Positions 11,340-56,054 are shown, counted from the first letter of the stretch. The stretch: DNA of 64,000 nucleotides from an uncultured Bifidobacteriaceae bacterium (GCA_964536285.1 CAZHXG010000006.1:2303-66302); one strand, 5' to 3'. A program made the numbers and translations. The notes: generated by a model not told the origin, from the letters alone.

Positions 11340-12296
11340 TTACAATTGCGGCGGCTGGTTGCCCGGCGCCATGTGGGCGATAAGCCGGTCGTTCAATTCC
11401 TGCGCGGCGTTATAGCCGGATTTCTTCAATTTCGCCTGATATGCGGCGACTTCGACGAGCCGTGCCAGATCGCGTCCCGGTCGCACGGGAATGGTGATGT
11501 GCGGAACGTCTATGCCGAGAACTTTGACGAATTCCTGTTCCATGCCGAGCCGGTCAACGTCCGGAACCTCCTCCCACGGTTTGAGTGTGACGATGAGGTC
11601 AAGGGTTTTGTCGCGGCGGACACTTTTGATGCCGAACATGGCGGCGACATTGATGATGCCGATGCCGCGAATCTCCATGTGGTTGCGGGTCAGCTCGACG
11701 CTTGTGCCCAAGACTTCATGTCCGCCGACGAGCATCACCTTCGTCACGTCGTCGGACACAAGACTGTAACCGCGTTCGATCAGCGCAAGAACGGCTTCAC
11801 TTTTGCCGATGCCGCTGTCGCCGCGGATGATCACGCCCATGCCGAGGATGTCCACCATGCTGCCGATTTCCGTGCCGCGCGGTGCAAACATCGATTCCAA
11901 TTCGAGCGTCGCGTCGTTGATGAAAGTCATCGTGACCAGCGGTGTCTGGAAAACCGGCACGCCCGCCTTTTCAGTGGCGGCGAGAAGTTCCTTGTCCGGC
12001 TTTTGCCCGCGGCTGAAGACGATGCACGGGATTTTGTAGGCGAACAGATAGGCGTAGCGCGTCTCGCGTTGCGCGGTCGAAAGCGACCGCAGATAAAAAA
12101 ATTCCGCATGGCCGAACACCTGCACGCGTTTGTAGGCGAAATACTGCGTGAACCCGCTCAACGCGAGGCCGGGCCGGTTCACGGTCGGTTCGCGGATGAT
12201 GCGCTTCAATCCGGTCTCGCCCGCGATGAGTTTCATTTGCAACTCTTCGCCGTGCAACTTGAAAAATTGTTCAACCGTGATGGACGGATGTGCCAT
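11340..12296 (-). CDS. hprK: HPr kinase/phosphorylase
   Basis: VNRPGLALSG; Walker A GDSGIGKSE; LVSDD; HMEIRGIGII; IPVRPGRDLA. Confidence 0.96.
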   Translation of the reverse strand: MAHPSITVEQFFKLHGEELQMKLIAGETGLKRIIREPTVNRPGLALSGFTQYFAYKRVQVFGHAEFFYLRSLSTAQRETRYAYLFAYKIPCIVFSRGQKPDKELLAATEKAGVPVFQTPLVTMTFINDATLELESMFAPRGTEIGSMVDILGMGVIIRGDSGIGKSEAVLALIERGYSLVSDDVTKVMLVGGHEVLGTSVELTRNHMEIRGIGIINVAAMFGIKSVRRDKTLDLIVTLKPWEEVPDVDRLGMEQEFVKVLGIDVPHITIPVRPGRDLARLVEVAAYQAKLKKSGYNAAQELNDRLIAHMAPGNQPPQL

Positions 12297-12299
12297 AAA

Positions 12300-13052
12300 T
12301 CACAAATTAAATTCCGGGCCTAGATAAATTTCCCGCGCCTTCGGATCGTTCGCCAGAAATTCCGACGAGCCTTCGACCAGCACCTGACCTTTGTGGATGA
12401 TGTAGCCGCGGTCGATCAATTTCAAGGTTTCCCGCACGTTGTGATCCGTGATCAAAATTCCCAGCCCGCGTTCCTTCAGCCGCCGCACAATCTTCTGCAC
12501 TTCATAAACCGCAATCGGGTCAATGCCGCTGAACGGTTCGTCGAGCAACAGCAACTTCGGACTCGTCACCAACGCGCGTGTGATTTCCAGCCGTCGTTTT
12601 TCGCCGCCGCTCAACTGATACGCCTTGCTTTTGGCCACCGGAGTCAAATCCAGTTCTTCCAGCAGATACTTCAACCGCACCACGCGCTCGTCGTCCGACA
12701 TTTCGCACGTCTCCAAAATCGCCAGGATGTTTTCCTCGGCCGTCAGTTTGCGAAACACCGACGGCTCTTGCGTAAGATAACCGATGCCCAGCCGCGCGCG
12801 CTTGTGCATCGGCAGCGACGCGATGTCGCGACCGGCGAATTTCACCGCGCCTTTGTCCGGTTTCACGATGCCGACGACCATGTTGAAGGTCGTCGTCTTG
12901 CCCGCGCCGTTCGGGCCGAGCAGCCCGACGATTTCGCCCGCGTTCACGTTGACGGAAACGCCGTCCACCACGAGCCGTCCGTGATATCCTTTCGCCAGTT
13001 TTTCCGTGGCGAGCAGCAGGTCTTTGGATTTTTTTGCCGCGTATGTTTCCAT
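12300..13052 (-). CDS. lptB: LPS export ABC ATPase
   Basis: [54 protein letters not shown]. Start moved to METYAA because the ORF-track start at 13115 overlaps lptA. Confidence 0.95.
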
Positions 13053-13059
13053 TTCAAAA

Positions 13060-13626
13060 TTATTTTGGCGCGGCCGGTTTGTTTGTGTTCGCCGTCCGCG
13101 AATTTGTCCCTCCATGCGCGCCGTCCGGAATCTGTTTTAAAATCATGTGAGGATTGATGAATTGAACCTGGTCGGCGGCGCGATGCCAGATGATCACGTC
13201 GCCGGCCTGCGTCCCTTGCGCGTTCACAATTTGGGGATTGCCCGTCAGCGTCACTATTTCGTTCGTCGCGCCGTTTTTGACCTGATAAACATAGACCGCC
13301 TTCTCGCTGGTCGTGTGCATCGGCTGGCCTTTTGCGTCCGTCGAATCAATGACCACGTTCGTCTCGGCGACGATGTGTTCCATGCGTCCGCCCGGCTGCG
13401 GCAAATCCGCGACAAGCCATTCGCAGCGCAGCTTCATCTGCGGATCGCTCACGCGCACGTTGCCGCGATAGATAGCCTTGTGTGCGGTCAGGTCGAAATC
13501 CGCCTTGTCCGAATCAATCTGCGTCGGGCCGTGCGGCGTCTGCGGCGCGGCGGTCGTATTTGTTTGCGCGTTCAAATTTAAACTGTTGGTTGTTATGAAC
13601 AATGCGATGAGACAAAACTTTTTCAC
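13060..13626 (-). CDS. lptA: LPS transport periplasmic protein (OstA/LptA family)
   Basis: Signal peptide; IDSDKADF...AIYRGNVRV...LTGNPQI...GDVIIW beta-jellyroll pattern; position between lptC and lptB. Confidence 0.85.
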
Positions 13627-14087
13627 GGTGCAACTTTGTTTTCGGTCGTGCTTTCAACCACTGTGTGGACGCGGTTCGAAATGGTGAGCAATGAATCGTT
13701 TTGCCGCCACAAAAAACCTTCGCCATCGACGCGGAAGCTCCCGCTGCCGTTCTGCAATTTCAACGGCCCCGCCGAATTCGCCACGCCCTTCAATGAATCG
13801 TAAACGCATTCCGGCGCGTTCACGATCATTTCCGGTTTGCCGTCCGCGTCAAAAGTTTCCAGCTTGAGTTTTTTTATGACGAGCAGGCCGCCCGCTTGCG
13901 GCTGCGCCTCCGCGCCGGACAGACGCGACTTCATCCGCTGCTGGTTCGGGGCCGCAAAATATTCCACCGAAGTGAAATCGCTCGCGTGGCTCAAGCCGTT
14001 CTGCTGCGTCCACGCGCGCCCGCCGCAAAAAACCAATGCCGTAAGAACTGACAAAACCGGGACGGCGCTGTTCAATCCAGCTTTCAT
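13623..14087 (-). CDS. lptC: LptC-like LPS export protein
   Basis: N-terminal hydrophobic anchor plus beta-rich domain; canonical kdsC-lptC-lptA-lptB order. Confidence 0.65.
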   Translation of the reverse strand: MKAGLNSAVPVLSVLTALVFCGGRAWTQQNGLSHASDFTSVEYFAAPNQQRMKSRLSGAEAQPQAGGLLVIKKLKLETFDADGKPEMIVNAPECVYDSLKGVANSAGPLKLQNGSGSFRVDGEGFLWRQNDSLLTISNRVHTVVESTTENKVAP

Positions 14088-14629
14088 TCCGAATAATGTT
14101 CCACGAACGGCTGCCAGATTCCCTGCGCCTTCAAAATCATCTCGACCACTTCGCGCACCGCGCCGTGTCCGCCCGCCGCCTGCGTGACAAAATACGCCGC
14201 CGCCTTCGCCTCGGCCACGCCGTCCGCGACCGCGACGGAGAATCCCGCGCGCTTCAACGGCCCCAGATCCACAATGTCGTCACCGACGAAACAGACCTCG
14301 TCCCAGCCCGATTTTTCCTGCGACAAAAGTTTTTCAATCGCCGCCGTTTTACTCTGTTTGTCGTTCTGCTCGACGAGAAAATGAATTTTCAATTCCTGCG
14401 CACGAATTTTTGTAGCGGGTGACGGACGTGCCGAGACCCAGCCGATCTTCAGACCCGCGCGCCGCGCCAGCACAAGGCCGAGTCCGTCGCGGATGTTGAA
14501 GCGCTTGAATTCGCGCTCGCCGCCGATGAAAACCGAGCCGTCCGTGAGCACGCCGTCCACGTCGCAAAGGAAAAGTTTTACGCGCGCCAGTTTCTTTTTG
14601 AACGAAGATGATGAAATCAGTTTTAGCAT
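14084..14629 (-). CDS. kdsC: KDO-8-phosphate phosphatase (HAD family)
   Basis: DVDGVLTDG, RDGLGL, VGDDIVDL, GGHGAVREVVEMILKAQ. Confidence 0.93.
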   Translation of the reverse strand: MLKLISSSSFKKKLARVKLFLCDVDGVLTDGSVFIGGEREFKRFNIRDGLGLVLARRAGLKIGWVSARPSPATKIRAQELKIHFLVEQNDKQSKTAAIEKLLSQEKSGWDEVCFVGDDIVDLGPLKRAGFSVAVADGVAEAKAAAYFVTQAAGGHGAVREVVEMILKAQGIWQPFVEHYSE

Positions 14630-14630
14630 T

Positions 14631-15452
14631 TTAGCGGACGGCGTTGAAAACCTTGAGCAAACTTTTCAGCAACGCGGACATCTCGGCGAGCGGAATCATG
14701 TTTGGGCCGTCGCTCAACGCCTTGTCCGGTCGCGGATGTGTTTCCAGAAAAATTCCGTTCGCGCCGGATGCGAGCGCCGCGCGCGCGAGCACGGTCGCGA
14801 ATTCACGCTGCCCGCCCGACTTGTCGCCGCCGCCGCCGGGCAATTGCACTGAATGCGTCGCGTCAAATACGACCGGAAAGCCGAACGACTTCATGATCGG
14901 GATCGAGCGCATGTCGGCGACGAGATTGTTGTAGCCGAAGGTTGTGCCGCGCTCGGTGAGCAGGATTTTTTTCGCGCCCGCGCGTTTTGCTTTTTGCGCG
15001 ACCTGACCCATTTCAGTCGGCGAAAGGAATTGGCCTTTTTTCAGGTTCACGATCTGGCCGGTCGCGACGGCGGCCTCGATCAGATCCGTCTGGCGGCAGA
15101 GAAACGCGGGGATCTGCAAAATGTCCACGACTTCGCCGACGACGGCGGCGTGCGACTCGTTGTGGATGTCCGTGAGCACCGGCACGCCGAACTCTGCGCG
15201 GACTTTGGCGAGCACTCGCAGGCCTTCGTCGAGACCCGGCCCGCGAAACGATTTTGCGGACGTGCGGTTCGCCTTGTCGAAGCTGGCCTTGAAGACGTAA
15301 AAAATGCCGAGCGACGCGCAAATTTTTGTCAGCGAGGCGGCGACTTGCACGCACAGCTTTTCATTTTCGATCACGCACGGCCCGGCGATCAAAAACAATT
15401 GGCGCGGCGAATTGAGATTTTTCCAGATGGCGGCGTCGTTGAGCACGCGCAA
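14631..15452 (-). CDS. kdsA: KDO-8-phosphate synthase
   Basis: [55 protein letters not shown]. Confidence 0.97.
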
Positions 15453-15492
15453 GTTTTAGCAGCGGCGCGACAGAAAGTAAATGCGGCGAATT

Positions 15493-16800
15493 TCAAATCA
15501 CCGTCCCGTGCGGGATGACGGCGTTTTTGGGAATGATGACGATGCCGTCGCGGATGAAATAAAGTTCATGGTCAACGCTCTCGGCTTTTCCGGCGGGCGA
15601 AATCGTCACGTTGTTCCCGATGCGCGCGTTTTTATCAATGATGGCGTTTTCAATTTTGCATTGCGCGCCGATGCCGATGCGCGGCTTACCTTCGCGTTCG
15701 TGTTTCTGGATGGATTCCTGATGCTCGTAATCATCGCTGCCGAGGATGATGACGCGGTTCAATTCCGTTCCCGCGCCGACAAATGTCCGCAGTCCGACGA
15801 TTGAATTTCTGATATGTGCCTGATTGATGATGCAGCCGTCGGTGACGAGCGCGTGTTCGATGTGCGCGCCGTTGATTTTCGAGCCGGGCAGGTAGCGCGG
15901 GCGGCTGAAAACCGGCGCGCTCATGTCGAAGAAATTGAAGCGCGGCAGTTCGGAAACCAGATCCAGATTCGCCTCGAAAAAGGAGCGGATCGTGCCGATG
16001 TCCTCCCAGTAGCCTTGAAAGACGTAGGAAAAAACGCGGTGCGTGTTGATGGCATGCGGGATGATGTGCTTGCCGAAATCGGACAGGGGATTGTCGAGCA
16101 GGTCGCGGATCAAATTGCGGTTGAAAACGTAAATACCCATCGAAGCGAGGAATGATTCGCCGTCACCCTTGATTTTGAGCGAGGATTTTAAAGCCGGTTG
16201 CAGCTTCAATGAATCAAGCTCGCCGGCTTCCCTTGGTTTTTCCACAAAGCGCGTGATGCGGTGGTCGTCGGCGATCTGCATGATGCCGAGTGATTGCGCC
16301 TCCTGGCGTCCGACGGGGATTGTCGCGACGGTGATGTCCGCGCCTGTTTCGATGTGCTGTGTGACAACGCTGCGGAAATCCATCCGGTATAATTGGTCGC
16401 CGCTCAAGATGATGAGGTAATCGAAATCGTGGTTGAGGAAGTGGACCAGATTTTTCCGCACCGCGTCCGCCGTGCCTTCATACCACGAGGTATTGGTGAG
16501 CGTCTGCTGGGCCGCGAGGATTTCCACGAAGCCGTTCGAGAACTGGTCGAATTTGTACGTGCGCGAAATGTGCCCGTGCAGCGAAGTGGAATTGAACTGC
16601 GTCAAGATGTAGATGCGTCGGAAACCGGAGTTGATGCAGTTCGAGATCGGGATGTCCACGAGCCGGTATTTTCCCGCCAGCGGCACGGCGGGTTTGGCTC
16701 GGTCTTTCGTCAGCGGGAACAGCCGCGCGCCCTGGCCGCCGCCCATGATGACGCAAAGGACTTTGCTGACGTTGATGGATTGGCGATTTGTCTGTGGCAT
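15493..16800 (-). CDS. glgC: Glucose-1-phosphate adenylyltransferase
   Basis: GGGQGARLFPLTKDRAKPAVP, WYEGTADAV, LSGDQLYRMD, ASMGIYVF, DFGKHIIP, YWEDIGT. Confidence 0.97.
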   Translation of the reverse strand: MPQTNRQSINVSKVLCVIMGGGQGARLFPLTKDRAKPAVPLAGKYRLVDIPISNCINSGFRRIYILTQFNSTSLHGHISRTYKFDQFSNGFVEILAAQQTLTNTSWYEGTADAVRKNLVHFLNHDFDYLIILSGDQLYRMDFRSVVTQHIETGADITVATIPVGRQEAQSLGIMQIADDHRITRFVEKPREAGELDSLKLQPALKSSLKIKGDGESFLASMGIYVFNRNLIRDLLDNPLSDFGKHIIPHAINTHRVFSYVFQGYWEDIGTIRSFFEANLDLVSELPRFNFFDMSAPVFSRPRYLPGSKINGAHIEHALVTDGCIINQAHIRNSIVGLRTFVGAGTELNRVIILGSDDYEHQESIQKHEREGKPRIGIGAQCKIENAIIDKNARIGNNVTISPAGKAESVDHELYFIRDGIVIIPKNAVIPHGTVI

Positions 16801-17228: not shown

Positions 17229-18512
17229 TTAATTTTTGCGCGTGATGAACGGCGCGAACTCGTCGTGGTGCTGCGGCGGAATGCGGACTTTGAAGCGCGC
17301 GGTCTTTCCGTTGTAACGGCGTTCGATGACCTGACCGACCTTGTGCAGGCGCGCGATGGCGGCGGACTGTTCGTGCGGAATCCGCAGTTCCAAAAATTCT
17401 CGGTTCGGTTTCAATTGCGTTCCGAGTTCGGCGAGCAAGGTTGGAATTCCGTTGCCCGTCGTCGCGGAAATTCCGACCGCGTGCGGAAATTTTTCCTGCA
17501 ACCGGTTCAACGCGCCGCCATCCAATTTATCCATTTTGTTGAAGACCATGATGGTGGATTTTTCGTCCGCGCCGATTTCTTTCAAAACGGAATTGACGGC
17601 GGCGATCTGCTCCTCGGCCTGCGGATGGCTGATGTCAACGACGTGCAACAACAAATCCGCCTGCACGACTTCTTCGAGCGTCGCCTTGAACGCCTCGACC
17701 AGTCCGTGCGGCAATTTTTTTATGAATCCGACCGTGTCCGTCAGCAAAACGTTCTGGTTCGTCGGCAATCTCAAACGGCGCGTCGTCGGGTCGAGCGTGG
17801 CGAACAAAATATCCTTCACCAGAACATCCGACCCGGTGAGCGCGTTGAGCAAGGTGGATTTTCCGGCGTTCGTGTAGCCGACAATCGAAGCGAGCGGCCA
17901 GTTGCTGCGCTGGCGTCCGGCGCGCTGCGTTGCGCGCTGGCGGCGGACGGTGTCGAGGTCGCGCGAAATTTTGTCAATGCGTTCGGAAACTTTGCGGCGG
18001 TCGGCTTCAAGTTGTGATTCGCCCTCGCCGCCGCGCATGCCGATGCCGCCGGCCTGCCGCGACAAGTGGCCCCAGAATTTTGTGAGCCGCGGCAGCAAGT
18101 GCTGCAACTGCGCGAGTTCGATCTGCAACTTGCCTTCGCGCGTCTGCGCGCGTCGTGCGAAGATGTCGAGAATTAGCGACGTGCGGTCCAGTATTTTGCA
18201 GTTGAAGATTTTTTCGAGGTTGCGGCTTTGCGCGGGCGAAAGCTCGTCGTCGAAAATCACGGTGTCAACGTCGTTGCGTCTGCAGAAATCTGAAAATTCT
18301 CCGGCCTTGCCTTTGCCGATGAACGTCGCGGCTTGCAGCGATTCCATTTTTTGAATCCCGTCGCCGACGACTTCCGCTCCGGCGGTTTGCGCCAGTTCCC
18401 CGAGTTCGGCGAGCAACTCGCGCGTGTCGGTGCCGTTGCGCGATTTGAGTTCGACGGCGACGAGGAAGACCCGTTCCGGCCGCGTGTTTCTGGTTTCGAT
18501 GAGTGCTTTCAA
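17229..18512 (-). CDS. hflX: Ribosome-associated GTPase HflX
   Basis: IGKGK, ILDIFARRAQTREGKLQIELAQL, VGYTNAGKSTL, FATLDPT, DTVGFI. Probable TTG start at 18512; the ORF-track start at 18620 runs into the divergent promoter. Confidence 0.95.
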   Translation of the reverse strand: MKALIETRNTRPERVFLVAVELKSRNGTDTRELLAELGELAQTAGAEVVGDGIQKMESLQAATFIGKGKAGEFSDFCRRNDVDTVIFDDELSPAQSRNLEKIFNCKILDRTSLILDIFARRAQTREGKLQIELAQLQHLLPRLTKFWGHLSRQAGGIGMRGGEGESQLEADRRKVSERIDKISRDLDTVRRQRATQRAGRQRSNWPLASIVGYTNAGKSTLLNALTGSDVLVKDILFATLDPTTRRLRLPTNQNVLLTDTVGFIKKLPHGLVEAFKATLEEVVQADLLLHVVDISHPQAEEQIAAVNSVLKEIGADEKSTIMVFNKMDKLDGGALNRLQEKFPHAVGISATTGNGIPTLLAELGTQLKPNREFLELRIPHEQSAAIARLHKVGQVIERRYNGKTARFKVRIPPQHHDEFAPFITRKN

Positions 18513-18556
18513 TTTTCTGCGGACGGCATCATAGCACAACCGGCGGATTCCGCGAT

Positions 18557-18575
18557 TTGATTTTGGAGAAATCAA
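18557..18575. promoter_or_regulatory. Inverted repeat upstream of the sigma54-type promoter (candidate regulator site)
   Basis: TTGATTT-N5-AAATCAA, perfect 7-bp arms. Confidence 0.45.
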
Positions 18576-18613
18576 GCAAATGTGCATTAAAATTGGCTCA
18601 AAATAAAGCGATT

Positions 18614-18630
18614 TAGGCACATCGCTTGCT
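18614..18630 (+). promoter_or_regulatory. Sigma54 (RpoN) -24/-12 promoter
   Basis: TAGGCAC-ATCGC-TTGCT. Exact GG-N10-GC spacing; close match to consensus TGGCAC-N5-TTGCW. Confidence 0.75.
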
Positions 18631-18642
18631 GTCTGAACCCGC

Positions 18643-19959
18643 GTGAGCCGTCACAATTCAATAATGTTTTTGCTGCGTGCTTGCGTCGCGTCGTTCGTAC
18701 TTTCAAACGCGACGCCGTTGCGCGCTGCCGATACGAATCTGGAGGAGCAGGTTCGTTTGTTGCTCAAGCAAAATGCGATTCTGCAACAGCAGTTACAGAA
18801 GCAAGGAGGCGCACTCGATGCGCTCACGAAAAAAGTTCAGGACTTGGAGACTGCGAATGCCGGGCGCGAAAATGCGGCTTCAGAAAATTCCGCGCCGGCA
18901 ATCGGTGGATACAATTTCGGCAAGGTCAATTTGAGCGGCGAAGGTGGTGTTGCATTTTTTAACACGGGCAAGGAAGGGTTCGCGCCACACTCTGAATTTC
19001 GCGTGGACGAGGCGCGACTTTTTGTCGAAGCGCCGATCTGGAAGGAAGTTTATTTTTATGGCGATGTCGATCTCGCCACGCGCGAGAACACGGACACGAA
19101 ACTTTATCTCGGCGAGTTGTATCTCGATTTTCAGGATGTGTCGCAATTGTGGGGACGTGACAACCAATTCAACATGCGTGCAGGCCGGTTAAATATTCCG
19201 TTCGGCGAGGAATATCTCACGCGCTACGCGATCGACAATCCGCTCATCTCGCACTCGCTGTCGGATTTTTGGGGCATTGATCCGGGTTTGGAGCTTTATG
19301 GTTCGGCGGGGAAATTCAGCTACGTGCTTGCGGTGCAAAATGGCGGCGGTTCCGGTGTGCAGGATTTTGACGGCGACAAATCCGTGGCTGGAAGAATCAG
19401 TTTTGATCCGAACCGCCACTGGCATTTCAGTATGAGCGGAATGCGCACGGGCGATTTGAACGCGCAGAATGATTTTCTTTCGGCGGAATGGTTTGGCACT
19501 GGGTTTTTCCGCTCATTGGGTTCGCCGGGCACAACAACGTTTCACGCAAATCTTGTCGAGGGTGATATGACGGCACGATGGAACAGCGGCCACATTAGCG
19601 CATTCGGCGGCTATGCTCGTTACGGCGACAATGATCCTGTGGCGGACAATGCTCGCGATATTTTTTATTATTCGATTGAGGGAGAGCAAAATTTGCCGCA
19701 TAAATTTTACGCGGCGGCGCGCTTCAGTGAAATCATGGCGGACAAGGGTTTTCCGATCGTCGGTTACGGAAATTTCAATAATTACTTTTTTAATACTCTT
19801 TCGACTGAACTCTGGCGCTTGAGCCTTGGATTCGGTTATCGCTTCAGCGACCGATTGGTGGTCAAAGCCGAATACTCGCTTGAACGAGGCAAGGAATCGG
19901 GCGGTGATTCAAGGAATCACGAGGATTTTTTTGGCACGGAAGCGGCTTTTAAATTCTGA
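18643..19959 (+). CDS. Outer-membrane beta-barrel (porin-like) protein with N-terminal coiled coil
   Basis: 438 aa. Signal peptide (likely ATG at 18664); coiled segment LEEQVRLLLKQNAILQQQLQK; alternating amphipathic strands; C-terminal Phe (GTEAAFKF). Confidence 0.8.
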   Translation: MSRHNSIMFLLRACVASFVLSNATPLRAADTNLEEQVRLLLKQNAILQQQLQKQGGALDALTKKVQDLETANAGRENAASENSAPAIGGYNFGKVNLSGEGGVAFFNTGKEGFAPHSEFRVDEARLFVEAPIWKEVYFYGDVDLATRENTDTKLYLGELYLDFQDVSQLWGRDNQFNMRAGRLNIPFGEEYLTRYAIDNPLISHSLSDFWGIDPGLELYGSAGKFSYVLAVQNGGGSGVQDFDGDKSVAGRISFDPNRHWHFSMSGMRTGDLNAQNDFLSAEWFGTGFFRSLGSPGTTTFHANLVEGDMTARWNSGHISAFGGYARYGDNDPVADNARDIFYYSIEGEQNLPHKFYAAARFSEIMADKGFPIVGYGNFNNYFFNTLSTELWRLSLGFGYRFSDRLVVKAEYSLERGKESGGDSRNHEDFFGTEAAFKF

Positions 19960-19961
19960 CT

Positions 19962-20663
19962 TTGAACATGAAAACTCTGTTATCGGCGGCCATTATCGTT
20001 TTGGAGTACGGCGTTGTTTCTGCGGGAACAATCGTTGGCAATGTGCATGCCGAAGGAAAGGCCGGCGCAAACGACGGCACGGCAACCGATGGCGCGTATG
20101 CGAGCAGAAAATATAAATTTGTTGAAAAGGTGGATTACCCGGCGATGCATGACTTCGTTGTCTATGTCGAAGGTTCCTTTGGCACGAACAACGTGCCAGC
20201 AACGAACACAGTGGAAGTTTCGACGATAAAGGTTGCGCAGAGGGAAGCGATTTTTTCTCCACACGTCCTGCCGGTGATGGTCGGTACGACTGTCGAATGG
20301 CCGAATTACGATGACATTTACCATAATGTCTTTTCGATGTCCGATGCGAAGCAGTTTGATCTTGGACTTTACAAAGGAAGCCCGCCGGACAAGCGAGTGA
20401 CATTCGACAAGCTGGGCCGCGTGGACGTTTTTTGCTCAATCCATACTTCCATGAGCTGCATCGTGCTGGTGCTGGAGAATCCTTACTTCGCGTCCACGGA
20501 TGAAAATGGAAACTATAAAATTCCCAATGTGCCACCCGGCAAATACAAGTTGAAGGCGTGGCACGAAAGGCTGCCCGCCGACGAACGCGAAATCACCGTG
20601 TCGACAAACGGCGAGGTCAGGGTTGACTTTGTGCTCGGTATAAAAAATTTGCCGCAATACTGA
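19962..20663 (+). CDS. Periplasmic cupredoxin-like protein with carboxypeptidase-regulatory-like beta-sandwich
   Basis: Signal peptide; VGTTVEWPNYDDIYHNVFS and VDVFCSIHTSM; C-terminal GNYKIPNVPPGKYKLKAWHE. Confidence 0.8.
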   Translation: MNMKTLLSAAIIVLEYGVVSAGTIVGNVHAEGKAGANDGTATDGAYASRKYKFVEKVDYPAMHDFVVYVEGSFGTNNVPATNTVEVSTIKVAQREAIFSPHVLPVMVGTTVEWPNYDDIYHNVFSMSDAKQFDLGLYKGSPPDKRVTFDKLGRVDVFCSIHTSMSCIVLVLENPYFASTDENGNYKIPNVPPGKYKLKAWHERLPADEREITVSTNGEVRVDFVLGIKNLPQY

Positions 20664-20670
20664 TCTAATT

Positions 20671-22926
20671 GTGAGACTCCCACGCATTTTGTTCGACATA
20701 AGCTTTCGCACGAAAGTTCTCGTGCCAGTCGTTGTTTGCATGACAGGGCTCATGGCATTGACTTTTTTTATCGTCAACCAGCGCATCAAGGAACAATCCG
20801 AGGCTGATGGCAAACGTGCGTTGGAAACAGCAGAGGCGGTGTTCCGCAATTCACAATACGTCCGCACAAAAAATTTACTGCTCCGGTTTCACAATCTGCC
20901 CAACGACACGCGCATCCGCGCAGCGTTCGTCAAAGGGGACGCCCTGACCTTGCGTGATCCGCTTCAACATCTTGTCAACGAGCAGGGCATGGACGTGGTT
21001 TTTTATGCGACGACCGATGGGAAAATTTTGGATAGCGAGGAAAGTGATCCGACATTTCCGGTTTCAACATTTGAGTCGGCGGCGCTCCCCGCGGTCAAAC
21101 AGGCTTTGCGAGGCGAGGACAAGGTTGACACGATTCGCGTGGGCGAAAAAATTTATGATGTTGTATCTATCCGCGTTTACGACGCGGAACACGTCCAGAT
21201 TGGAGTGTTGACCCTTGGTTCCGAACTTGGCGATGCGGTGGCGCAGGAATTTAGCAGGATCACGCAAAGTCAGATTGCTTTGCTTGCCGACGGACAGGTT
21301 GTTGTCTCTACGCTGACCGGTTCGGATGCGAGAGCGCAATTTATCAGCGCGTTCAAGGAGGCAACGTCGACTGGCAATGTAAATCTGAATACCGATGTGA
21401 AGCCATTCGTTCTGGGCGGACAACATTATTATGGCATCACCGGACGGTTTGACTCATTGAGCGGCGACCAGACGCTGGGTTATGTGCTGTTAAGTTCCTA
21501 CGAAGAATCTTTGAGTTCGTTGCGGACAGCGCAACAGGTTCTTTTGAGCATCAGCCTTTGTGCGATTTTGTTTGGTTCAGCGGTGGTGTGGTTTTTGGTC
21601 AACAAAGTTACAAAACCGTTGCGCGAGTTGCGCGATAGCGCCGAGGCGGTGGGTCGCGGCGACTTCACGCGCCGGGTTCCGGTGCACTGGCACGACGAAT
21701 GTGGTGAACTGGCACTGGCCTTTAACCGGATGACAGAAAATGTCCAGCAATCGCGCGCGGAACTGGAGGAAACGGTTGAGACGCTCAAGAGCACGCAGGC
21801 ACAGTTGATCCAAAGCGAAAAGCTTTCCGGCATCGGCGAGTTTGTCGCCGGTGTGACTCACGAATTGAACAACCCACTGGCTGCGGTCAGCGGTTTTTCC
21901 GAAATGCTCAAAGGCATGGATGTGGATGAGAAATACCGGCGCTATCTGGACATGATTCATAAATCGGCGCAACGTTGCCAGAAAATCGTCCAATCGCTAT
22001 TGAGTTTTGCGCGAAGACATCCGCCCGAACGTGGGGCGGTGTCGGTGAATAGTCTTATCGAGAGCGCGCTTGAAATCGTCCATTATCAACTTCGCACCAA
22101 CAACATCGAAGTTGTCACCCGGTTTGACCGAAGTCTGCCGGTCGTGCTGGCCGATTCGCATCAGTTGCAGCAAGTGTTTCTCAACATCATCAACAACGGG
22201 CGTCAAGCCATCGAAGAGCATCAGGCGCATGGAGTCATCAAGATTATTACCGAAGCGACCGAAAAACATGTCCGCGTTATCATTCACGACAATGGCCCCG
22301 GCATTCCTGAAGAAAATTTGCGACGCATCTTCGATCCGTTTTTCACCACCAAGGAAGTCGGCAAAGGCACCGGACTCGGTTTGAGTTTGTGTTACGGCAT
22401 CATCAAGGAACATGGCGGCACGATCACGCCTGTGAGCCGTCGAGGCGAAGGCGCGACATTCATCATCGAACTGCCTGTCTCGCATATTTCAGGTGACACA
22501 ACCAAGCTGTTGCGTTCGCACGACGTTGGAGTTTTAAATTCAAACGAAGGCGTCGGCAAAAAAATTCTCGTGATCGACGACGAGGAACCTATTTTGAGCA
22601 TGATTCACGAAGGATTAACCCGTCACGGATACGAAGTGGATGTGGTATCCGATGGTGAAACCGCTTTGCGCCGCCTTAAGCAAGGTCGCTGTGACTTGGT
22701 GTTCTGTGACTGGAAAATGCCCGGGCTCAATGGCCGGGAAGTTTACGAAAACCTCCGGGTGACGAATCCCGATCTTTGCCAGCGAGTCGTCTTCATTACC
22801 GGCGATGTCATCAACGAGCAAATGGAGAGATTTCTCGAAGGGGAAAAGCGACTTTGCCTGGCCAAACCCTTCACGTTTGACGAACTTCGCGGCGCAATAA
22901 GAAACGTACTCGCCGCTGCCGCGTAA
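20671..22926 (+). CDS. Membrane hybrid sensor histidine kinase (periplasmic sensor, HAMP, HisKA, HATPase, REC)
   Basis: Two TMs; HAMP ([18 protein letters not shown]...[13 protein letters not shown]); H-box THELNNPL; [29 protein letters not shown]; REC with VIDDE, DWKMPG, AKPF. Confidence 0.95.
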
Positions 22927-22980
22927 AATTTTTCACGGCGCGCTTTACTTTTTGCGTTGTTTGCGTTTTGCTTCAGACCC

Positions 22981-24243
22981 ATGAACAAGCTCAAATTTTT
23001 CTTGGCGCAACTTTTTTACTTCCTGATTTTTTCCGGTATCGTGTCCGCGCAACCGCTTCCGAAAATCGAACTCAAACCGGCCTTTCCCAATTTGCAGATC
23101 GACCGTCCGGTCTGGATGAGCGAAGCGCCGGACGGTTCGGGACGGCTTTTCGTCATCGGACAGGCCGGAAAAATCCTCATCGTGAAAAAAAGTTCGGACG
23201 GCGGCGACGCGAAGGAGTTTTTGAACATCGAGGATCGTTACCCGTATTTTGACAACGAAGACGGCCTGATGAGCATCGCGTTTCATCCCGGCTTCAAAAC
23301 GAACGGCCTGTTCTACATCTATTACAACCAGAAAAATCCGGCGGATCAACATTCGCAGCCGCAAAATTATCCGTTCCGCAGCGTCATCAGCGAAATGAAA
23401 GTTTCCGCAAGCGATCCGGACAAGGCCGACACGAATTCCGAGCGAATTCTTTTGGAAGTGCAGCAACCGTTCGGCAATCACAAAGGCGGCGAACTGGCTT
23501 TTGGCCCCGACGGTTATCTTTATCTCGGACTCGGCGACGGCGGAAACGGCGGTGATCCGTTCGGCAGTGGCCAAAGCACTTCCACTTTGCTCGCAAAAAT
23601 GCTGCGCATTGACGTAAATTCGCGCGCGACCGTTGGCTGGGGTGCGCGTCAGCATCAATTGCAATACGGAATTCCGTCAGACAACCCGTTCGTGCACGAG
23701 CCGGACATCAACAGCGGCGCGCGCAAGGAAATTTTCGCCTACGGCCTGCGTAATCCGTGGCGTTATAGCTTCGACCGCAAGACCGGCGACCTGTGGGTCG
23801 GCGATGTCGGTCAGGATTTCTGGGAGGAAGTTGACCTCGTCACCAACGGCGGCGACTACGGCTGGAGCGTCCGCGAAGGCGCGCATCATTTCAAACCCGG
23901 CCCGCCCAGCGCGCAATACATTGACCCTGTCATCGAATATCCGCACCTGCCGTCTCTTCAATCGCAGGCGATGTTTCCCGACCACAGCACAGGCCTGTGC
24001 GTGATAGGCGGTTACGTTTATCGCGGCAAAAAATATCCGTCGCTCGACGGCGTTTACATTTACGGCGACTACAACTTGGGAACGATTTGGGGATTCCGTT
24101 ACGCCCGCGACGCGAAAAAAGTCACCGCGCACGGCATGCTGCTGGACCAAAAGAAAAACATCACCAGCTTCGCGGAAGATGCGGATGGTGAACTTTACGT
24201 CCTTATGATTGACGGACAGATTTATTCGATCACCGCGCCGTGA
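22981..24243 (+). CDS. PQQ-dependent aldose sugar dehydrogenase (GSDH/YliI family)
   Basis: NHKGGELAFGPDGYLYLGLGDGG, AYGLRNPWRYSFD, DVGQDFWEE. Start set at MNKLKFF (ORF track: 22957). Confidence 0.88.
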   Translation: MNKLKFFLAQLFYFLIFSGIVSAQPLPKIELKPAFPNLQIDRPVWMSEAPDGSGRLFVIGQAGKILIVKKSSDGGDAKEFLNIEDRYPYFDNEDGLMSIAFHPGFKTNGLFYIYYNQKNPADQHSQPQNYPFRSVISEMKVSASDPDKADTNSERILLEVQQPFGNHKGGELAFGPDGYLYLGLGDGGNGGDPFGSGQSTSTLLAKMLRIDVNSRATVGWGARQHQLQYGIPSDNPFVHEPDINSGARKEIFAYGLRNPWRYSFDRKTGDLWVGDVGQDFWEEVDLVTNGGDYGWSVREGAHHFKPGPPSAQYIDPVIEYPHLPSLQSQAMFPDHSTGLCVIGGYVYRGKKYPSLDGVYIYGDYNLGTIWGFRYARDAKKVTAHGMLLDQKKNITSFAEDADGELYVLMIDGQIYSITAP

Positions 24244-24249
24244 CGAAAT

Positions 24250-25182
24250 TCAAATCTGAAAATCCAGCGCCGTTTTTTTGTCCGACTTGCTCAACACGCG
24301 CATGTCGAGGCCGTCGTAAATGACCAGCGAATTCGGCGCGACGCTGTCCATGATGAACACGTTGCCGCCGATCGTGCTGCCCGCGCCGATGATCGTCTCG
24401 CCGCCGAGAATCGTCGCGCCCGGATAAATCGTCACGCGGTCCTCGATCGTCGGATGCCGCTTCTTGCCGCGCAATTGCTGGCCGCCCGCCGTGGACTTCG
24501 CGCCCAGCGTCACGCCGTGATACATCTTCACATGATTGCCGATGACGGCCGTCTCGCCGACGACCGTGCCGGTGCAATGATCCACGAAAAAATGTGAGCC
24601 GATTTTCGCGCCCGGATGGATTTCCATTCCCGACCGGAAATGCGCCCACTCGACCATGATGCGCGGAATCAGCGGAACATTTTTCAGATACAATTCATGT
24701 GCCAGCCGCTGCACCGCGATCGCCTCGATAAACGGATACGAAACCAGAACCTCTTCCTTGCTCGCCGCCGCCGGGTCGCCGTCGAACGCGGCTTCCACGT
24801 CCGTTTTTAAAATCTCGCGGATGTCCGGCAATTTGCCGAGGAATTCTACCGTCAGTTTGTGCGCCGCCTTGGTGATTTCCTTTTTTGGCAAATCCTTGGG
24901 CGTCTGGTATTCGAGGCTCTTGCGGATTTCATCCTCCAATTTTCCAAGAACCGAATCCAGCAACGCCGCCGTTTCCATTTTGATTTCCGACGAGTGGATC
25001 AATTTCTCGTCAAAAAATCCGGGGAACAGCAGCCGCAACAAATCCATCGTGATGGCCGTGACGACGCGTTTGGACGGCAGGTTTTTCCCGTCCAGATGGT
25101 TGATGCCGCCGACGCGCGCATACGACGCGACAAGCTCGTTCGTGAGTTTGGTGACGTTTTCCACGACGCCAGTATCCTGCAA
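24250..25182 (-). CDS. cysE: Serine O-acetyltransferase
   Basis: FDGDPAA...YP, EIHPGAKIG...DHCTGTVVGETA, GVTLGA, KRHPTIED hexapeptide region. Confidence 0.9.
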   Translation of the reverse strand: MQDTGVVENVTKLTNELVASYARVGGINHLDGKNLPSKRVVTAITMDLLRLLFPGFFDEKLIHSSEIKMETAALLDSVLGKLEDEIRKSLEYQTPKDLPKKEITKAAHKLTVEFLGKLPDIREILKTDVEAAFDGDPAAASKEEVLVSYPFIEAIAVQRLAHELYLKNVPLIPRIMVEWAHFRSGMEIHPGAKIGSHFFVDHCTGTVVGETAVIGNHVKMYHGVTLGAKSTAGGQQLRGKKRHPTIEDRVTIYPGATILGGETIIGAGSTIGGNVFIMDSVAPNSLVIYDGLDMRVLSKSDKKTALDFQI

Positions 25183-54959: not shown

Positions 54960-56054
54960 GTGAAAAAAATTCTGGTCATAGACGACGAAGAATGGTTGCG
55001 CGAGATGATCCAACTCGCATTGCAACAAAAGGGCTTCGAAGTCATCGAATCGGCCAATGGTACGGACGGTATCGAAAAAGCGCGCAAAGAACTTCCAGAC
55101 CTCATCCTCTGCGATGTCAACATGGGAAAAGTGGACGGCTACCTGACATTGTCCGCGTTGCGCACCGAAGCGCCCACCGCCGCGATTCCTTTCATCCTGA
55201 TGACCGGCCTTGCCGACAACGCCGGCATGAGACACGGCATGGAACTTGGTGCCGACGATTATCTACCCAAACCTTTTACGACCGAGGCGCTTTATGCCGC
55301 AGTGGACGCGCGACTCAAAAAGGCGCAGACACTCCGCGACGAAGCCGAACGCAAGCTCACCCATCTGCGCGACAACATCAGCCTAATGATGCCGCACGAG
55401 ATGCGCACGCCGCTGAACGGGATTCTTTCCAACGCCGAATTGCTGGCAACTTCCGCCGTGACGCTCAAGCCGGCTGAAATCGCCGAAATGGGTCAGGAAA
55501 TCCACAAGTCCAGTTTGCGGCTGGAACGGCTCATCGAAAATTTCCTGGTTTACGCGCAGTTGGAACTCATCGCCACCGATCCGAAAAACATCAACGCGCT
55601 GCGCATCGGCAGAACGGAACATCCCGCGCCGCTTCTGAAAAAACTTGCCGAAGCGCAAGCCGCGCAGGTAAACCGCCCGCATGATTTGACAATTGAGGTG
55701 ATGGATATTTCCGTGCCGATGTCCGAGGAATATTTCAGCAAAACTGTGAATGAGTTGTTGCACAACGCCTTCAAGTTTTCCAAGGCCGGTTCGCCCGTCT
55801 GTATAACATTGGCGGAAGCGTTCAACGGTATTGTCCTTTCCGTCAGCGACAAGGGACGCGGATTTTCCACCGAGCAGATCAAACGCATCGGCGCTTACAC
55901 GCAGTTCGACCGCAAGATTCAGGATCAGCAGGGATTGGGACTTGGTCTGGCCATCGCCAAGCGGTTGGTTGAGTTGCATGGCGGCACGCTTTCAATCGAA
56001 GGGGATAAAGGCGCGACCGTCACCGCGAAATTTCCCAAGGCAAAACCAGATTGA
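54960..56054 (+). CDS. Cytoplasmic hybrid REC-histidine kinase
   Basis: REC (VIDDE, DVNM, DYLPKPF), then HEMRTPLNGI H-box, HNAFKFS, DKGRG, GLGLGL. Confidence 0.93.
   Translation: MKKILVIDDEEWLREMIQLALQQKGFEVIESANGTDGIEKARKELPDLILCDVNMGKVDGYLTLSALRTEAPTAAIPFILMTGLADNAGMRHGMELGADDYLPKPFTTEALYAAVDARLKKAQTLRDEAERKLTHLRDNISLMMPHEMRTPLNGILSNAELLATSAVTLKPAEIAEMGQEIHKSSLRLERLIENFLVYAQLELIATDPKNINALRIGRTEHPAPLLKKLAEAQAAQVNRPHDLTIEVMDISVPMSEEYFSKTVNELLHNAFKFSKAGSPVCITLAEAFNGIVLSVSDKGRGFSTEQIKRIGAYTQFDRKIQDQQGLGLGLAIAKRLVELHGGTLSIEGDKGATVTAKFPKAKPD

Follow-up and report, generated by a model that had tools for sequence, protein, structure and literature searches.

In the LuxP–LuxQ, TorT–TorS and NspS–MbaA systems, the real receptor is a secreted partner protein, which docks on a double-PAS or Cache-like periplasmic domain of the sensor. 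The YfiBNR (TpbB) system of Pseudomonas aeruginosa places one protein in each of the outer membrane, the periplasm and the inner membrane, and YfiR reportedly responds to redox conditions. Published work deals with NspS–MbaA (PMC8079147) and with the YfiBNR system (PMC3375315). Here we examine three adjacent genes, encoding an outer-membrane beta-barrel, a predicted blue-copper protein (cupredoxin) and a hybrid sensor histidine kinase (together, the trio), in a 64,000-nucleotide stretch of DNA (the window; CAZHXG010000006.1:2303-66302 of assembly GCA_964536285.1, entered as an uncultured Bifidobacteriaceae bacterium). With a probability of roughly 0.6, we read the trio as one conserved envelope-spanning sensory module in which the cupredoxin serves as receptor or co-sensor and which has, in this locus, a sigma54-linked kinase output. 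That the cupredoxin acts on the input side of the sensor seems to us rather probable from the pattern of gene linkage.

The cupredoxin family is large: a single-protein search of database representatives returned 163 clusters at E ≤ 1e-30 and more than 5000 at E ≤ 1e-10, and a genome scan gave at least 584 genomic matches. Eighty genomic loci were fetched by means of an alignment of diverse family members (alignment A1), and seven more came from metagenome contigs and annotated plasmids (loci carry the prefix L). Linkage was counted over 82 loci from at least eight phyla, the sample taking in Verrucomicrobiota, Acidobacteriota, Gemmatimonadota, Armatimonadota, Planctomycetota, Proteobacteria, Myxococcota, Zixibacteria, Calditrichota and others. 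A profile built solely from periplasmic residues 36–288 of the kinase matched exactly one protein per locus in 75 of the 82 and left the other kinases in the flanks unmatched; most of the remaining seven loci are contigs that end just after the cupredoxin gene. The sensor gene always lies directly after the cupredoxin gene, typically at −3 to +30 nt and often with overlapping stop and start codons, or after the barrel gene. By these profiles, the cupredoxin gene is linked to one family of sensor domains, independently of the output.

The outputs themselves are diverse. Among 48 sensor proteins, they were 36 kinases, five HD-GYP domains, three class III cyclases, two GGDEF domains and one SpoIIE, and in Proteobacteria the sensor domain carries GGDEF-EAL. 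At least seven architectures were seen, including kinases with or without PAS and REC domains, kinases followed by or fused to an NtrC-type activator, GGDEF with HD-GYP, and HD-GYP alone. A barrel profile found a homologue in about 60 loci, in the orders barrel–cupredoxin–sensor, cupredoxin–sensor–barrel and cupredoxin–barrel–sensor, and the loci that it did not match encode a divergent barrel-like protein with a signal peptide, a coiled coil and an aromatic C-terminus (DUF3034 in Proteobacteria), so that nearly every locus has a porin-like barrel. When the open reading frames (ORFs) of all neighbourhoods were clustered all against all, only the cupredoxin, sensor and barrel families recurred, and the trio stays together in unrelated genomic contexts. 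Fixed linkage to one extracytoplasmic domain, together with swapped outputs and permuted gene order, speaks for an input module rather than a regulator with its targets and points to a role for the cupredoxin and the barrel in signal input. A preliminary description of this DNA had proposed to look in other neighbourhoods for a barrel and a cupredoxin beside a variable signalling gene, and the survey came out in favour of its interpretation, which comparative genomics thus supports.

The same description had likened the trio to a proteobacterial cluster of a barrel, a cupredoxin-like protein and a cyclic di-GMP (c-di-GMP) enzyme. That cluster exists: it consists of a DUF3034 equivalent of the barrel, the cupredoxin and a GGDEF-EAL protein, with genes annotated as ‘methylamine utilization protein’ and ‘EAL domain-containing protein’. 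The sensor domain of that cluster and that of the kinase studied here are homologous (E of 1e-31 to 7e-19 with the periplasmic profile, and 71 bits to dCache_3). The Caballeronia and Novosphingobium clusters also include a gene for a group 1 truncated haemoglobin with a signal peptide (L083 5486–5926 and L086 3258–3821), presumably a periplasmic protein. Secreted truncated haemoglobins are unusual, and their presence is a hint of O2 or NO chemistry.

The product of the second gene contains a cupredoxin domain (approximately residues 88–170, nt 20223–20471) nested in a CarboxypepD_reg beta-sandwich that is made up of a strand at residues 22–31 and residues 176–226. CarboxypepD_reg scores above its Pfam cut-off and Copper-bind (PF00127) just under (20.3 bits vs 21.2), with PF00127 present on some of the close homologues. 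Sequence matches in the Protein Data Bank (PDB) are cupredoxins, and in the alignments His121, Cys158, His161 and Met164 fall on the residues that bind the type 1 copper in 5fc9, 9cck and amicyanin. These four ligands are invariant or nearly so in alignment A1, and the His together with the C-x2-H-x2-M loop is kept in every one of the cupredoxin homologues from the surveyed loci (82/82). The AlphaFold2 model has a predicted local distance difference test score (pLDDT) of 85.7 overall and about 96 over residues 90–225, and Foldseek paired it at probability 1.00 with amicyanin, pseudoazurin, plastocyanin and the cupredoxin domain of NirK, with target-normalised template modelling (TM) scores of 0.6–0.8. 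The protein thus has the modelled fold and the aligned ligand set of a type 1 copper protein, and it is probably a copper-binding blue-copper protein.

Longer N-termini within the family yielded no informative fusions, only tandem duplications and one weak match to cytochrome b562. Members of distant clusters are named only ‘hypothetical protein’ or ‘plastocyanin’. One distant homologue on Sinorhizobium meliloti pSymA (L085 4704–5423) combines cupredoxin and CarboxypepD_reg and has the C-x2-H-x2-M loop; it has no adjoining sensor, its neighbours being genes for an SCO copper chaperone, hemA and a metallophosphoesterase, and it looks like a member of a separate subfamily with a different role. 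In the literature, ‘methylamine utilization protein’ appears only in omics tables, for instance as BPSS0404, which is 23–49-fold upregulated in Burkholderia pseudomallei inside macrophages; we do not use this protein, a merely possible member of the cupredoxin family, as evidence.

The kinase consists of a first transmembrane segment (residues 15–35), a periplasmic dCache_3 domain (residues 36–288, nt 20776–21534), a second transmembrane segment (residues 289–311), and HAMP, HisKA, HATPase_c and REC domains. Pfam places dCache_3 (PF14827) at residues 66–242, between the two transmembrane segments, with 50.7 bits against a cut-off of 25.7, and HisKA, HATPase_c and REC all score well above theirs. 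The preliminary description had reported an NtrB-like H-box and a REC domain with no output domain; we found the H-box HELNNPL with His397 and a REC domain with the DD pair at 637–638, acceptor Asp680 and Lys732, and Pfam detected neither an HPt nor an output domain. The best NCBIfam matches of the kinase core include AtoS and ZraS. Since all such matches fall far under the cut-offs of the named equivalogs (245 bits vs 1200 for EspC, and 238 vs 646 for AtoS), the kinase is, by sequence, not orthologous to any named kinase (AtoS, ZraS, EspC, CckA and others). A PDB sequence search with the periplasmic domain returned only DcuS, at insignificant scores. This domain has no conserved Cys, His or Met. 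On the input side, the cupredoxin alone is thus left as a candidate for a metal or redox centre, and the lack of such residues fits a sensor domain that would engage a protein partner rather than a bound metal.

The barrel protein has a signal peptide, a predicted periplasmic coiled coil (approximately residues 26–68), a body of marked beta-strand pattern with about 16 predicted strands, and the C-terminus ...AAFKF; its heptad-rich segment reads EEQVRLLLKQNAILQQQLQKQ.... By sequence it falls outside Porin_O_P, BBP2 and Porin_4, the BBP2 score of 19.8 bits lying below the Pfam cut-off of 26.2, and no NCBIfam model matches either the barrel or the cupredoxin. Only some of its homologues bear a weak annotation (Porin_O_P; PF07396 or PF07642), and they are sometimes labelled phosphate-selective porin O/P. 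The AlphaFold2 model shows a long helix at residues 26–68 followed by about 16 strands, with a mean pLDDT of 61 and values of 80–90 in the C-terminal half. At this mean pLDDT, Foldseek matched the model to the 16-strand trimeric porins OmpT, Omp32, PorB, OprO, DcaP and OmpM1, with E of 1e-10 to 1e-9 and TM of 0.45–0.66 for the first five. An electron conduit like Cyc2 with rusticyanin, or like MtrB, was considered and rejected, the barrel being porin-sized and without a haem motif. In one long-read metagenome contig (L001 8646–9994) the barrel gene is broken up into four or more ORF fragments next to intact cupredoxin and kinase genes; the split probably reflects frameshift errors in the assembly, with a pseudogene as the alternative.

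The preliminary description had also connected the kinase to NtrC-type activators of sigma54 promoters and had placed a −24/−12 promoter in front of the trio. Both proposals gain from the comparison with other loci. An NtrC-type activator gene directly follows the kinase gene in L032, L037, L047, L053 and L078, the acidobacterial order being barrel, cupredoxin, kinase and REC-AAA+-HTH_8. In an Acidobacteriota metagenome-assembled genome (MAG), a single 1088-residue ORF spans dCache_3-HisKA-HATPase-REC-AAA+-HTH_8 (L031 6357–9623), which is either a natural fusion or an assembly artefact. Because the H-box is NtrB/AtoS-like and because of these acidobacterial kinase–activator clusters and the L031 fusion, the kinase of the window probably feeds an NtrC-type activator as well.

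Upstream of the barrel gene, AGGCACATCGCTTGCT matches 10 of the 11 specified positions of the sigma54 consensus (scored as TGGCAC-N5-TTGCW-like, with a distance of 12 nt from the GG to the GC doublet). It stands 35 nt ahead of the ATG, which would predict a transcription start at about 18640–18642. Counted over the window only, the motif is no more frequent than chance predicts, with seven one-mismatch matches against 6.08 expected; its conservation in the clade to which the window belongs is more telling. An element with at least 10/11 matches occupies the corresponding site, 31–35 nt before the barrel ATG, in L002, L003, L005, L006, L011, L087 and L088, and a weaker one (8–9/11) is found in L001, L004, L009 and L010. 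In 586 kb of sequence from this clade there are only 19 sites with at least 10/11 matches, eight of which lie just upstream of the barrel gene; the background rate of such sites is 0.0019 per 60-nt window. The positions conserved are GGCAC-N5-TTGCT, and the surrounding intergenic DNA has diverged. Amid the diverged intergenic DNA of the syntenic relatives, a further block, GCGATTT(G/C)ATTTT, stands 50–75 nt upstream of the −24 element. It is overlapped in the window by a perfect 7-bp inverted repeat, TTGATTT-N5-AAATCAA (18557–18575), that is not conserved in the relatives. The region 18552–18575 may be an activator site, or else it belongs to the promoter or 5′ end of the divergent hflX gene.

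Taken together, these data suggest the following model. The module would comprise an outer-membrane channel of the trimeric porin type, which has a periplasmic coiled-coil stalk in Verrucomicrobiota, a soluble periplasmic blue-copper protein and an inner-membrane receptor of the dCache_3 type. The cupredoxin would act as primary receptor or co-sensor: an oxidant or reductant entering through the dedicated channel would set the state of this protein (most likely whether its copper centre is oxidised or reduced), and the periplasmic domain of the receptor would read that state by direct contact and switch the cytoplasmic output. In the window, the NtrB/AtoS-like hybrid kinase would signal, probably to an unlinked NtrC-type activator, and the activator would drive the sigma54 promoter before the barrel gene, giving positive autoregulation. 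The physical contacts, the kind of signal perceived, the partner in the phosphorelay and the autoregulation are all inferred. For sigma54 autoregulation of the trio, we regard the case as suggestive and lean slightly against it.

Several observations weigh against this model. Type 1 copper proteins change structure little between Cu(I) and Cu(II), a difficulty for any readout of redox state, and the barrel model is only moderately confident (pLDDT 61). The syntenic orthologues that share the sigma54 motif are not phylogenetically independent, and at the thresholds used the motif is absent from L089, from Opitutae and from other phyla, including the acidobacterial loci that encode an activator; the element is thus a feature of one Verrucomicrobial clade and not of the whole module. 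The 64-kb window contains no sigma54 activator, HPt protein or rpoN. Six-frame searches of it for GAFTGA and ESELFGH and a phmmer search with the acidobacterial activator found only a REC-kinase at 54960–56054, and no activator gene was present in the 10-kb flanks of the relatives. The divergent hflX start and the −24 element lie so close together that an upstream activator site of the classical kind would have little space, and there is a weak sigma70-like match farther upstream, at 18564–18593.

In one alternative, the element would belong to the promoter or leader of the divergent hflX gene and the trio would be transcribed by the housekeeping sigma factor. The short divergent intergenic region that holds the element and the lack of enrichment of the motif in the window agree with that account, as do a hairpin that overlaps the element and scores as terminator-like on the minus strand, the sigma70-like match, the want of an activator gene nearby, and L089, which stands in another context and has no motif. 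The positions that have been kept, however, are exactly GGCAC-N5-TTGCT at fixed spacing to the barrel ATG, whereas the arms of the hairpin are not conserved in L087 and L088; L003, L006 and L011 retain the motif, and in distant homologous clusters this type of kinase pairs with sigma54 activators. We consider an hflX origin of the element unlikely, although it deserves to be taken seriously.

As to what the proposed module perceives, a redox, O2 or NO signal is our tentative and still doubtful assignment. We weakly prefer it to copper, since no copper-homeostasis family recurs in the neighbourhoods of the 82 loci and the proteobacterial clusters include a secreted truncated haemoglobin. If copper availability were sensed, the channel would admit copper and the receptor would distinguish apo from holo cupredoxin. 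The strict conservation of the copper ligands would suit this scheme, and there are known two-component systems that respond to copper and employ accessory proteins binding it in the periplasm (CopRS, CusRS, and PcoRS with PcoC); a P-type ATPase and a cytochrome c are encoded near one locus, and the distant S. meliloti homologue sits beside an SCO copper chaperone gene, albeit with no sensor. Type 1 sites, however, have a very high affinity for copper and are not known to serve as reversible sensors; families for copper efflux, multicopper oxidases or chaperones do not recur across the 82 neighbourhoods, and the haemoglobins of the proteobacterial versions point instead to O2 or NO. Copper sensing is improbable on this evidence.

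Least probable of all is that the barrel and the cupredoxin are cargo, a small periplasmic electron-transfer or uptake system (for example for a periplasmic dehydrogenase such as the adjoining GSDH-type enzyme) whose expression the sensor merely regulates. In favour of this, regulators often adjoin their targets, the sigma54 element precedes the barrel gene, the kinase gene of the syntenic clade is followed by one for a secreted GSDH-type dehydrogenase, and amicyanin-type cupredoxins accept electrons from periplasmic quinoprotein dehydrogenases. Yet what stays linked is the periplasmic sensor domain, regardless of the output; HD-GYP, GGDEF-EAL, cyclase and SpoIIE partners do not control transcription of the genes beside them; dehydrogenases and oxidases do not recur from locus to locus (GSDH being confined to close relatives); and the overlapping starts and stops of cupredoxin and sensor genes suggest stoichiometric co-production.

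The coordinates of the trio and of the associated features are collected in Table 1. We take the ATG as the start of the barrel gene because a database protein identical to the window product is 431 residues long, and for the cupredoxin gene we favour the ATG on account of homologues of 230–231 residues. As the preliminary description had it, the three genes are closely linked and no response-regulator gene adjoins them, the neighbours being hflX and the GSDH-type gene. The three share one strand, with gaps of 2 (or 8) nt between barrel and cupredoxin and 7 nt between cupredoxin and kinase. The hflX gene lies upstream on the opposite strand, with start codon candidates at GTG 18620, at ATG 18587 or further in. 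The GSDH-type gene begins about 54 nt past the kinase stop codon with no convincing terminator in the gap; it may be co-transcribed with the trio, and its product is a possible redox partner of the cupredoxin. Synteny is limited to the close relatives L002, L004, L005, L008, L087 and L088; the gene is absent from L001, L089 and other phyla and lies outside the conserved module. An Rfam scan of 18300–24400 gave no match.

Table 1. Features of the trio locus, in window coordinates.
Feature	Position	Strand	Remarks
Conserved upstream block GCGATTTGATTTT	18552-18564	.	kept in window, L002, L003, L004, L087, L088
Sigma54-type -24/-12 element AGGCACATCGCTTGCT	18615-18630	+	GG 18616-17, GC 18628-29, canonical spacing
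Outer-membrane porin-like beta-barrel gene	18664(ATG)-19959	+	431 aa; alternative GTG 18643
Type-1-copper protein gene	19962(TTG)/19968(ATG)-20663	+	secreted; 233 aa, or 231 from ATG 19968
Hybrid sensor histidine kinase gene	20671(GTG)-22926	+	751 aa
GSDH-type (PQQ-dependent sugar dehydrogenase-like) gene	22981-24243	+	secreted; Pfam GSDH 3.5e-39

Close relatives of the window are Verrucomicrobiia/Limisphaerales MAGs, and its sequence occurs in DNA runs of rhizosphere metagenomes but in none of the RNA runs. The REC-kinase at 54960–56054 (+) is a two-component protein of 364 residues, with an N-terminal REC followed by a HisKA/HATPase core, and is the only other REC ORF found in the window. 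On the minus strand, 11340–16800 holds a housekeeping cluster of hprK, lptB, lptA/lptC-like genes, a kdsC-like phosphatase gene and kdsA, then glgC. There, hprK comes directly after lptB and rpoN is missing, unlike the arrangement in many Proteobacteria.

In the full-text literature, whose coverage here is incomplete so that the result is an absence of evidence only, no study describing the trio was found, in line with the preliminary description, which knew of no characterised function for it. A periplasmic c-di-GMP module of Stenotrophomonas, considered as a possible described relative, proved unrelated. For most bacterial sensor kinases and c-di-GMP enzymes it is not known what they sense, and an easily recognised cupredoxin partner whose type 1 site is intact sets apart an entire class of such receptors. 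Soil and rhizosphere Verrucomicrobiota, Acidobacteriota, Gemmatimonadota, Armatimonadota and Proteobacteria are among the carriers. Should the cupredoxin be the receptor, a redox metalloprotein that acts as co-receptor would represent a new sensing principle and would offer a testable handle on redox and oxygen perception in abundant, little-studied soil phyla. The misleading database names ‘plastocyanin’ and ‘methylamine utilization protein’ would then be corrected. We tentatively venture, at odds that we put well short of even, that no signalling system before this one has had a blue-copper protein as the receptor itself: a phylum-spanning, modular trans-envelope input device of porin, type 1 copper co-sensor and dCache_3 domain that would report the oxidant or reductant state outside the cell or in the periplasm (O2, NO or an electron donor) and that evolution would have coupled to histidine kinases, sigma54 activators, c-di-GMP enzymes, cyclases and phosphatases. 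Culturable carriers (Caballeronia, Comamonas and Novosphingobium) make the hypothesis directly testable.

Each component of the trio has described counterparts from which it departs in its setting. The barrel, as judged by Foldseek from the model of pLDDT 61, may have a 16-strand fold like that of the trimeric porins DcaP, OprO/OprP and OmpM1, and DcaP and OmpM1 also have an N-terminal periplasmic coiled-coil stalk. Its sequence similarity lies below the Pfam cut-offs, however, and none of these porins is encoded with a sensor. Amicyanin, pseudoazurin and plastocyanin have the same fold and the same His/Cys/His/Met set as the second gene product, whose C-x2-H-x2-M spacing is amicyanin-like. 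Whereas they are single-domain electron shuttles encoded beside their own redox enzymes, the cupredoxin here sits inside a CarboxypepD_reg beta-sandwich, and its gene accompanies that of a signalling receptor instead of an oxidoreductase. The kinase has the HELNNPL H-box and the core match in common with the NtrB–NtrC pairs AtoS–AtoC and ZraS–ZraR. As in those pairs, a REC-AAA+-HTH_8 activator stands beside the kinase in distant homologous clusters, and a −24/−12 element precedes the operon here; the present kinase differs in being a hybrid with its own REC domain and in having no linked activator gene.

As a whole, the trio invites comparison with three kinds of envelope signalling. Fec-type cell-surface signalling resembles it in concept, in that a protein of the outer membrane is devoted to passing a signal through the envelope to a regulator in the cytoplasm. 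Fec relies on a TonB-dependent transducer, an anti-sigma factor and an extracytoplasmic function (ECF) sigma factor, whereas the trio has no TonB box, plug, anti-sigma factor or ECF sigma factor. YfiBNR matches the distribution of the trio over three compartments, and its soluble periplasmic protein controls the inner-membrane signalling enzyme via the periplasmic domain of that enzyme, the scheme that we propose here. YfiB, however, is a Pal/OmpA-like lipoprotein and not a porin-type barrel, YfiR is no cupredoxin and has no metal centre, the sensor domain of YfiN is unrelated to dCache_3, and the output is a diguanylate cyclase only. In LuxP–LuxQ, TorT–TorS and NspS–MbaA, as in the trio, the gene for the partner adjoins that for the sensor, and the outputs are kinases or c-di-GMP enzymes. 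Their partners have the periplasmic-binding-protein fold, bind small ligands, and possess neither a redox metal centre nor a dedicated outer-membrane component, in all of which the trio differs. By analogy, then, the trio resembles accessory-protein-dependent envelope sensing, set apart by its predicted blue-copper protein and its dedicated porin-type barrel.

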